IMG/VR virus record: IMGVR_UViG_3300045988_080648
Length of the DNA: 64,000 nucleotides
Reading direction: 5' to 3' (one strand)
Source: a virus
Notes under the pieces: model-generated
The model's input: the letters and a program-made list of their open reading frames with translations, nothing else
Told to the model about the DNA's origin: nothing
The model's database searches: none
Position numbers and translations under genes: made by a program
Shown here: in pieces, positions 20 to 1,858 of the stretch
Position numbering within the stretch: the first letter of the stretch is position 1
Layout of the letters: every line of letters starts with the position of its first letter

Positions 20-298
20 AAGATTCCTCTAATAGTTCTGTGCCCTTATAGAAACATCTATGTAGTACAACAAGGTTATCATTCTTATAAATGGATAGCC
101 TTTGATGATACTAACCCACATGAAAGATGCTTATATTTGGGTAACTATGATAATGCTCTAAAAGAGAATTTAGCACTATATGAGTATTGTTATATAGGTA
201 CATTTATAATTCCTAAAGGAACTAAATACTTTGAGAATGAGCATGGACATATAGTATCCTCAGATATTATTTATACAGGTAGATATTTAAAATTGTAG
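20..298 (+). pseudogene. C-terminal fragment of an MCW-family paralog. The reading frame opens after a TAG at 17-19 and has no start codon. It ends ...IIPKGTKYFENEHGHIVSSDIIYTGRYLKL, the same C-terminal signature as the three downstream paralogs.
   Basis: Translated by hand. Shares the YHSY and IIPxGxxYxxNxxGxIxSxxIxYTG(K/R)xLKL motifs with ORFs 301, 761 and 1457. Confidence 0.35.
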
Positions 299-300
299 TT

Positions 301-756
301 ATGTGTTGGATAGAAAGACAAGAAAATGTAAATATACAAATCACTGATAAAGATATTGAAGTTTACAAAGTAGTTTTTGAAGCTAGTAAACAATCTTGTA
401 AATCATGTGTTTTTAGTTTTATATATGAAGCTAACATCTTATATAAAATACCTTCTATACAACTTAAGAAAGGATATGCTTATGAAGCTAATTGGTTTTC
501 CAATATAATTTACGTAGAAAGAGCATATCATAGTTATACTAAAATACAACATACTCTTAGGAAAATTAAAGTAGAGGATTTGGTTCATAAGTATAAAGGA
601 ATTATTGTTGGTAATCAACTAATATCGTTGCCAATTAATAACTCTTATTATATAACTACATTTATAATTCCTAAGGGCTCTCAGTATGCTGTAAATTGGC
701 AAGGTGAAATTATCTCAAATAAAATAATATATACTGGCAAATGTTTAAAACTGTAA
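301..756 (+). CDS. MCW-family paralog 1 (151 aa), function unknown
   Basis: ORF track. N-terminal MCWI, C-terminal TFIIPKGSQYAVNWQGEIISNKIIYTGKCLKL. The ttATGTGTTGGa start context recurs at 761 and 1457. Confidence 0.6.
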   Translation: MCWIERQENVNIQITDKDIEVYKVVFEASKQSCKSCVFSFIYEANILYKIPSIQLKKGYAYEANWFSNIIYVERAYHSYTKIQHTLRKIKVEDLVHKYKGIIVGNQLISLPINNSYYITTFIIPKGSQYAVNWQGEIISNKIIYTGKCLKL

Positions 757-760
757 GATT

Positions 761-1198
761 ATGTGTTGGATTTGTAATATTAATAAATTAAAAGCTCAAT
801 TAGCTATAGAAGATATTAATGTATATAAAATAGTTAAGAAAGCTACTAAAAAGTCTTGTGTATCTCCATTTATGGATTATACTTACTATTCAAAAGATAT
901 ACAACTTTCTTTAACTTTAGGAGTAACGATTGAACCTCGTTCAATTCTTGCAAAGATTACAGAAGGTTATTATGGTTACTCCTCTGTAAATTTTGTATGT
1001 GATTCAATAGTGGAAGGAATCTGTGGAGGTTATGTAAAAACTATACAGTGTGGAAATCGTAAAGAAATATTTAGAGTAGATAATTCTTTATATTTAGCTA
1101 CATTTATAATTCCTGTAGGTTCTGTATATTTTACAAACGAAGAAGGTATAATAGTATCTAATAAAATTCGCTACACAGGTAAATATATAAAATTATGA
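761..1198 (+). CDS. MCW-family paralog 2 (145 aa)
   Basis: ORF track. MCWI N-terminus, C-terminal TFIIPVGSVYFTNEEGIIVSNKIRYTGKYIKL. Confidence 0.6.
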   Translation: MCWICNINKLKAQLAIEDINVYKIVKKATKKSCVSPFMDYTYYSKDIQLSLTLGVTIEPRSILAKITEGYYGYSSVNFVCDSIVEGICGGYVKTIQCGNRKEIFRVDNSLYLATFIIPVGSVYFTNEEGIIVSNKIRYTGKYIKL

Positions 1199-1407
1199 AA
1201 AAAGCATTATTAATTATAGGATTGTTATTAACTGTTACTTTAGTTAATAGTTATAATTATCCTACTATAAATGGTACTAAACCACAGGCTTACTATCGTA
1301 AAACTCTAGAAATTATGTATGATTCTAAGAAAAGACCTCATAAGATAGTTATCTATAGTGGATCAGGTATGGCAGCTATTGATTTAGATGCCAATACATA
1401 TAAATAA
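1195..1407 (+). CDS. small secreted protein (signal peptide MKKALLIIGLLLTVTLVNS)
   Basis: ORF track. Hydrophobic N-terminal signal-like segment. ATGA overlap with the upstream gene. Confidence 0.45.
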   Translation: MKKALLIIGLLLTVTLVNSYNYPTINGTKPQAYYRKTLEIMYDSKKRPHKIVIYSGSGMAAIDLDANTYK

Positions 1408-1456
1408 TTATTAGAGAATTATTTAAATAATAGTAAAACAATTTAATAATTAAATT

Positions 1457-1858
1457 ATGTGTTGGGTGGATTGTATGGCAATTCCAATTGTATTGAAGAA
1501 GTCTTTGAAAGTTTATAAAGTAGGCAATATAAAAACTTCAGGTATCTTTATAAGTCTATATCAAAATTTTAGATACTATAAATCTCAGATTATGCCTACA
1601 GTAAAGATAAATCCTAAATTTGAAAGGAGTAGATGCTTTATTATAGGGTATTTTGGAGAACTTTGGAAATATGACCGTTTTTATATAAATGAAGGCTATC
1701 ATTCATACTTAACTGAAGAAAGGGCTAAGAGTAATATGTATAGTAGTGGTAAAATAGGAATATTTGAAATTCCAGTAGGTGCTACTGTATATATCAATTA
1801 TATAAGTAAAGAAGTAGTTAGTACTGATATTAAATATTTAGGGTTACTAAAAGAATAA
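1457..1858 (+). CDS. MCW-family paralog 3 (133 aa)
   Basis: ORF track. MCWV N-terminus, C-terminal IFEIPVGATVYINYISKEVVSTDIKYLGLLKE. Confidence 0.55.
   Translation: MCWVDCMAIPIVLKKSLKVYKVGNIKTSGIFISLYQNFRYYKSQIMPTVKINPKFERSRCFIIGYFGELWKYDRFYINEGYHSYLTEERAKSNMYSSGKIGIFEIPVGATVYINYISKEVVSTDIKYLGLLKE

Follow-up and report, generated by a model that had tools for sequence, protein, structure and literature searches.

A 64,000-nucleotide (nt) stretch of viral DNA, IMG/VR record IMGVR_UViG_3300045988_080648 (the whole stretch is called the window below), begins with four paralogous genes arranged in tandem on the + strand. They belong to a protein family that is very large, carries no name and is apparently restricted to phages. 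Its members are predicted to form a compact all-β domain, for which the ADP-ribosyltransferase (ART)/NADase fold is the most likely one. The interpretation that we prefer, tentatively and at somewhat less than an even chance, is that of a divergent enzyme family of this fold (SCOP d.166), made early for host takeover and including in this array one degenerate and one dead copy. The array is laid out as follows:

2..298, + strand: C-terminal 98 codons of copy 1, an open frame without a start; pseudogene in this strain
301..756, + strand: copy 2, 151 amino acids (aa), starting MCW; the canonical member
761..1198, + strand: copy 3, 145 aa, starting MCW; degenerate, with its open reading frame (ORF) intact
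1195..1407, + strand: ORF of 70 aa outside the family, embedded within the array
1457..1858, + strand: copy 4, 133 aa, starting MCW; the most divergent of the four

Pairwise blastp links copies 2 and 3 at an E value of 4e-24, and the copy 1 fragment to copy 2 at 2e-14 and to copy 3 at 1e-13. Copy 4 gives weak pairwise matches to the other copies (E 7e-4 to 0.017); against a hidden Markov model (HMM) of 106 database relatives, from which the window sequences were excluded, it reaches 74 bits (E 5e-25) from end to end and is therefore a full-length family member. These results establish the tandem paralogs that an earlier note on this DNA had recognised, together with its three complete MCW-starting ORFs at 301, 761 and 1457. 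A six-frame hmmsearch found no fifth copy anywhere in the window. As the note had also observed, the middles of the proteins are diverged, the middle segment being the variable part, most of which is absent from copy 4. The C-terminal signature that it ascribed to all the copies fits copy 4 loosely, since this copy, which ends in ...IFEIPVGATVYINYISKEVVSTDIKYLGLLKE, shares the signature core alone (F.IP.G...N...E.V.S..I.Y.G). The DNA reported to be conserved around the start codons was likewise found, in the form of ATGTGTTGG, at all three MCW starts, where its only three occurrences in the 64 kb are located (0.24 expected; 0 of 100 shuffles reach three), but it is fully explained by the codons: the nine bases amount to Met-Cys-Trp plus an AT-rich codon choice and are thus no independent DNA signal. 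A conserved DNA motif near the starts was rejected, as ATGTGTTGG is accounted for in this way and AACACATTAACA is without enrichment. Outside the window, the distant members P0110, P0163, P0190, P0227, P0246 and P0255 end in ...CVG[KRQV]; this tail is the ATGTGTTGG of the next gene read in another frame, so that overlapping tandem copies are common family-wide.

A profile of the four copies retrieved 2,543 proteins from a collection clustered at 90% identity, none of them named and none with a Pfam domain; the longest contigs of these matches are typically of 100–198 kb. An exhaustive HMMER search of 1.84 billion representatives at 50% identity yielded 2,372 clusters at E values up to 1e-3. 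The source names are uniformly "hypothetical protein", the related IMG/VR contigs have lengths between about 18 kb and 412 kb, and the family proteins have 130–180 aa and start with Met-Cys-aromatic. When 110 members were compared with Pfam (E up to 10), NCBIfam and PADLOC, no recurrent family was matched. The sole library family that was matched is PHROG 13450, of unknown function, which is hit by 89 of 110 representatives (best E 8.6e-14). The window copies match it weakly (E 0.0057, 0.0058 and 0.2) and, given these scores, are divergent members of it; because this PHROG has no annotation, the match gives no functional information. The family, which the earlier note had not recognised, indeed has no name in any curated library. 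No relative turned up when 185,579 prokaryotic species genomes were searched in one pattern scan, and tblastn of copy 3 and the family consensus against 50,697 deposited phage genomes gave a single match, in an unannotated gut-metagenome phage record. The longer members (P0236, P0210 and others) contain no Pfam domain, so no domain fusion is seen, and the literature held nothing relevant on the family or on tandem ART paralogs in gut phages.

Conservation was evaluated over 110 diverse members at 20–35% identity, with residues numbered as in copy 3. M1, C2, K23 and P118 are invariant, the figure for C2 being biased by the choice of members that start MC. They are followed by H71, S133 and Y42 (98% each), S72 (95%), Y123 (93%), N126 (92%), D18 (88%) and E130 (80% Glu plus 5% Asp). 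The alignment contains no conserved Arg, and residues 74–110 form a hypervariable, indel-rich stretch. Such conservation of polar residues across so diverse a set appears enzyme-like.

AlphaFold2, run with the 110-sequence alignment, yielded all-β models of copy 3 (pLDDT 95.7, pTM 0.88) and copy 2 (pLDDT 91.3, pTM 0.86), with identical strand order in both. The models probably have an ART-like topology, a likeness that is no proof of homology. Within the SCOP ADP-ribosylation superfamily, the BC2332-like and CC0527-like proteins make up families d.166.1.6 and d.166.1.7 (PMC3000352), and BC2332 has been linked to catalytic sites of the diphtheria-toxin type (PMC3024214). In the window family, a His (G-Y-H-S-Y, 98%) is followed by a strand-initial Glu (G-E-I-V-S, 80%), an order that fits the ART catalytic motif. 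Diphtheria toxin has the motifs Y-H-G-T and V-E-Y-I, and PARP1 has H-G-S and N-E-Y-I-V; by analogy, G-Y-H-S-Y and G-E-I-V-S resemble the β1 His and β5 Glu motifs of H-Y-E ARTs. In a Foldseek search of BFVD, eight viral proteins were matched at E 1e-5 to 5e-4; all of them are uncharacterised, so that no function was gained.

In the mechanism that we propose, most members would bind NAD+ via the G-Y-H-S-Y strand, and the Glu of the G-E-I-V-S strand would catalyze either ADP-ribosyl transfer or NAD+ hydrolysis. The choice of target may be set by the hypervariable segment (about residues 74–110) together with the differences between paralogs. The genes are placed in a rightward early block beside phage tRNA genes and would therefore be made early, and their products may act on host components, in takeover or in counter-defence. 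A host-interaction or anti-defence role, as put forward in the earlier note, is plausible from the position and the fold.

Several observations weigh against an ART-like enzyme. Foldseek gave no significant match in the PDB (best E 0.09, TM below 0.2), no ART family was found in Pfam (E up to 10), NCBIfam, PADLOC or the PDB sequences, and hhalign against diphtheria toxin fragment A gave no signal (probability 0.1). The classical H-Y-E spacing is absent, as the sole conserved Tyr after the His is Y123, which lies only seven residues before E130 and thus cannot be the β3 Tyr. No known ART has an equivalent of the invariant N-terminal Cys or of K23. Finally, copy-3-type proteins persist although their His and Glu are gone, and since they are maintained without them, these two residues are not essential for the role of the copy-3 subfamily.

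Two other enzymatic identities were rejected. The family profile matches Legionella LnaB at its catalytic G-Y-H305-S-Y-S-E309 with an E value of 0.04, which raised the AMPylases of the LnaB/Ceg14 type, defined by S-HxxxE. The S-HxxxE residues sit on helices α19 and α21 (PMC13439196), so that the His is helical there, whereas it lies on a β-strand here, and a Glu four residues after the His occurs in 9 of the 110 members; the match was treated as a motif coincidence. A trimeric dUTPase was discarded because its marginal match disappeared with a deeper profile; no match that includes the five dUTPase motifs was obtained.

Regarding known ARTs, T4 Alt, ModA and ModB are phage ART-fold enzymes that hit host proteins at the start of infection, and modA and modB are adjacent paralogs, so that a large lytic phage has a small array of tandem ART genes here as well. 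The likeness lies in the tandem paralogs and in the proposed early, host-directed ART fold. The T4 Alt/Mod proteins are of the R-S-E type, have about 200–680 aa and are recognisable by profiles, whereas the window family has 130–180 aa, no R-S-E motif, no profile match and an invariant N-terminal Cys. Tne2, Tse6, TreTu and other Rhs C-terminal ARTs are bacterial C-terminal toxin modules paired with immunity proteins; the window family, in contrast, is stand-alone and, by the one pattern scan of prokaryotic genomes, phage-restricted, has no evident immunity gene and shares 6–12% identity with toxins of this type. BC2332 (PDB 2AUA; SCOP d.166.1.6) is a bacterial protein of 210 aa whose function is also unknown, and no sequence relationship between it and the family is detectable. 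AcrIF11, a phage anti-CRISPR ADP-ribosyltransferase, gives a weak structural score against the family and no sequence similarity, and it is not known to occur in tandem arrays.

The copies of the window differ in the state of the conserved residues. Copy 2 retains C2, D18, K23, S35, Y42, H71, S72, P118, K119, Y123, N126, E130 and S133. Copy 4 retains C2, K23, H71, S72, N126, E130 and S133, with D18 replaced by Ser and both Y123 and K119 by Val. Judged by these residues, both copy 2 and copy 4 appear capable of catalysis. Copy 3 carries H71Y, S72G, K119V and E130I and, having lost the His, Ser and Glu, would be a pseudoenzyme or a protein of changed function. Among the 120 matches listed, 97 are closest to copy 3; most of these have Val, Ala or Ile in place of E130, about 43 also have Tyr in place of H71, and their ORFs are intact. 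The copy-3 orthogroup points to a stepwise loss, E130 first and then H71, while copy-2 orthologs retain both residues. The loss of E130 and H71 from intact ORFs in the copy-3 orthogroup has a parallel in inactive PARPs, for example in PARP13 with its triad Y-Y-V.

The same orthogroup also suits a different explanation, in which the proteins are non-catalytic binders, ART-fold or β-sandwich-like, that is, small early proteins that bind host factors and inhibit or redirect them, the conserved residues being a surface for a ligand or partner and not an active site. Copy-3 ORFs remain intact and 69–99% identical despite the loss of H71, S72 and E130, and many phage early proteins are stoichiometric inhibitors. 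Outside the copy-3 group, however, H71, S72, N126, E130, S133, K23 and D18 are kept at 80–100% among sequences of 20–35% identity, and polar conservation at this distance is typical of catalysis or small-molecule binding rather than of an interface that tracks varying targets. We consider it unlikely that the family consists of such binders.

Copy 1 is the dead copy. The earlier note had placed the array at the genome edge and had described a start-less fragment upstream of copy 2. An identical copy-2 protein is encoded by nine contigs, and one of them, L001 (171,675 bp), extends 10 kb upstream of the window start, while L002 (171,339 bp) and L006 share their terminal base with the window. In L001, copy 1 begins with MCWVSGK...SHLKF and reaches a stop after 37 codons, just upstream of the window. 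When aligned with L023:5555–5995, an ortholog that is intact, copy 1 shows a 14-nt deletion, and base 1 of the window is the 3' side of its junction, which has the coordinates 9680–9701 in L001. The supposed edge is thus an assembly break at an indel in a pseudogene, L001 continuing upstream of it, and the probable cause of the break is heterogeneity among strains at this position. The fragment at 2–298 is the C-terminal part of a fourth copy, as proposed, with the rest upstream; it is not merely cut by the window, because the gene itself is frameshifted. Four assemblies (L001, L003, L004 and L005) have copy 1 split by the frameshift into pieces of 37 aa and 104 aa, and other strains (P0057, P0104) have unbroken versions of 139 aa. 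Copy 1 also has a His in place of E130 and is a frameshifted pseudogene in this strain.

We also considered that the chemistry of the family is centred on the N-terminal Cys, an explanation that seems to us quite unlikely. The conservation of this residue extends beyond the set chosen to start MC: without that selection, 129 of 150 representatives have a Cys as their second residue, the remainder being mostly fragments or mis-called starts, and about 95% of full-length members have it. Position 3 is occupied by aromatic residues or Leu without exception (W in 84%, otherwise F, Y or L), and since swaps among these residues need multi-base codon changes, this points to a constraint on the protein. 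However, full-length members without the Cys retain H71 and E130, as seen in the few that start MSW, MGW or with a Cys-rich N-terminal extension, and members without H71/E130 retain the Cys. As each occurs without the other, Cys2 and H71/E130 vary independently. In addition, the order of residues is C2...H71...E130, as opposed to the C2...E...H of SRAP. Both SRAP (HMCES/YedK) and Ntn hydrolases, in which an N-terminal Cys serves as the nucleophile once Met is removed and which had been considered on account of Cys2, were rejected because of the misfit in fold (SRAP or the α-β-β-α Ntn fold) and residue order.

Copy number, which the earlier note had proposed to compare among related phages, varies from one to seven in 41 related IMG/VR loci; the arrays are always in tandem on one strand, and many copies are split or truncated. 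The ratios of nonsynonymous to synonymous substitution rates (dN/dS; NG86, window against relatives) of copies 2, 3 and 4 are 0.48, 0.54 and 0.73, respectively, as compared with 0.30–0.72 for five neighbouring small genes, and inside orthogroups of the family the values are 0.42–0.57. The family is fast-evolving under relaxed purifying selection, like the whole early region, and no gene-wide positive selection is seen. The rapid diversification suggested beforehand is thus only relative, the neighbours being in a similar range. The embedded 70-aa ORF at 1195–1407, whose ATG overlaps the stop codon of copy 3 (ATGA), has a hydrophobic N-terminus (MKKALLIIGLLLTVTLV...) that is signal-peptide-like or transmembrane; it is kept in 16 related loci, and its dN/dS of 0.32 is below that of the family genes.

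Immediately downstream of copy 4, two tRNA-like RNAs and a terminator-like hairpin follow:

1866..1999, + strand: tRNA-like RNA E1, with a 7-bp acceptor-like stem GGGGGAU/GUCCCCC, a long hairpin and a T-arm-like hairpin
2058..2159, + strand: tRNA-like RNA E2, with a 7-bp acceptor-like stem GAGAAGU/ACUUCUC, a hairpin CCUACAU/AUGUAGG and a T-arm with the loop UUCGAUU
2194..2227, + strand: intrinsic-terminator-like hairpin of 14–15 bp, then a T-run, closing the unit of array and RNAs

The non-coding region 1859–2257 is 89–95% identical in nucleotide sequence in more than 12 related phages, which is above the flanking genes, and it is conserved even in loci whose copy-3-like protein is 37–58% identical. 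E1 and E2 are paralogous and share the acceptor-like stem, the long hairpin, a variable centre and a T-arm with a UUCGAUU-type loop. Their stems pair in 98% of cells, versus 36–54% with the partners slid, and six pairs are changed on both sides, a number attained by 0 of 500 shuffles. The acceptor-like stem of E2 has compensatory changes in L019, and its central site takes insertions of 0–85 nt in relatives. E1 adjoins the array and is syntenic; E2 lies between two family genes in the L031–L039 loci checked. Neither ARAGORN at default settings nor Rfam made a call on E1 or E2. A transfer-messenger RNA (tmRNA) reading of E1 was rejected, since ARAGORN called it only at a relaxed threshold, the proposed tag frame is broken by indels in relatives and there was no Rfam tmRNA match. 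A full-length tmRNA gene of 333 nt with the tag GEVNNTSVSYAIAA is present in L034, a contig of a related phage (11273–11605), about 5 kb downstream of the array of that locus.

Canonical tRNA genes are also frequent around the arrays. In the lineage of the window, one lies within 1.5 kb of the array in 30 of 43 loci, or in 39 of 43 when tRNA-like elements are counted. L001 has six tRNA genes in the 3 kb before copy 1, and its strand switch precedes the array by about 9 kb. The tRNA cluster that comes immediately before the array in this phage lineage includes ARAGORN calls of 85–95 nt with the anticodon UUA, which would read the UAA stop (L001 7110–7194; L040 2838–2922 and 3291–3385; L057 938–1022); the ORFs of the window read normally in code 11. 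Among more remote contigs, tRNAs within 6 kb were found in two of seven, so that a universal tRNA linkage of the family was rejected, and the linkage may be inherited synteny only.

This neighbourhood bears on a more speculative possibility, to which we attach a very low probability: the proteins would be NAD+-dependent enzymes of a new class, with an ART fold and an N-terminal Cys, that modify RNA and act on tRNAs or on E1/E2, and proteins and RNAs would make up one phage module that protects or reprograms the translation apparatus. Host anticodon nucleases, or other immunity that targets tRNAs, are examples of what it might counter. Among the structural matches, ART-fold enzymes directed at RNA, such as Tpt1, come up repeatedly. 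However, the Tpt1/KptA RNA 2'-phosphotransferase has two lobes and an Arg-His-Arg-Arg tetrad, whereas the family is without a conserved Arg, and the tRNA neighbourhood is missing within 6 kb in five of the seven more remote contigs.

The tRNA genes and the unstable arrays could also reflect selfish mobile genes of a homing type that collect in the tRNA region; arrays, pseudogenes and variation in presence or absence would then result from invasion and decay and not from selection for a role directed at the host. The tRNA clusters of T4-like phages are known landing sites for homing endonuclease genes, the arrays stand beside tRNA clusters, close relatives differ in copy number, and frameshifted copies are frequent, but this origin is highly improbable, given that none of the libraries searched gave a nuclease or DNA-binding motif or domain, that the compact all-β model matches ART folds and not GIY-YIG, HNH, LAGLIDADG or PD-(D/E)xK, and that the orthogroups keep stable array positions across relatives.

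Every window ORF of at least 100 aa whose function can be recognised lies on the + strand. Downstream, the window contains a module for replication and nucleotide metabolism (helicases, primase, NrdD, ligase and polymerase). Other features of the window are:

6302..7456: AAA ATPase, downstream of the small early genes
7535..9088: Band_7/flotillin-like protein
9151..11184: DUF8224 protein of 677 aa
12391..13516: second tRNA cluster (Asn-GTT, Thr-TGT, Ala-TGC, Gly-TCC)
50587..51795: ORF of 402 aa that matches homing-endonuclease PHROGs (GIY-YIG and HNH types)

Homologs of the DUF8224 protein, at identities that reach about 41%, occur in 504 deposited phage records, and the hosts of these are very diverse. 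In the second tRNA cluster, ARAGORN gives unusually long Asn and Gly genes, of 82 and 79 nt, and the Rfam alignment of the Gly gene covers 13443–13509 only. The 402-aa ORF is situated between the DNA ligase gene (49256–50497) and the DNA polymerase region (53780–55834), which consists of two adjacent ORFs.

With more than 2,300 clusters at 50% identity, the family described here, whose phage contigs span roughly 25–410 kb, is among the larger gut-phage protein families that are still nameless. The tRNA-like RNAs adjacent to the array are better conserved than any nearby protein and merit a study of their own. The array itself provides natural controls for experiments, as copies that look active stand next to a degenerate one and a dead one, and the invariant N-terminal Cys, which known ARTs do not explain, could indicate new chemistry. 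To our knowledge, the NAD-dependent effectors in the early arsenal of phages have so far been T4 Alt/Mod and AcrIF11; if the family is indeed a divergent ART/NADase, it would add to this arsenal a widespread and expandable set of such effectors.

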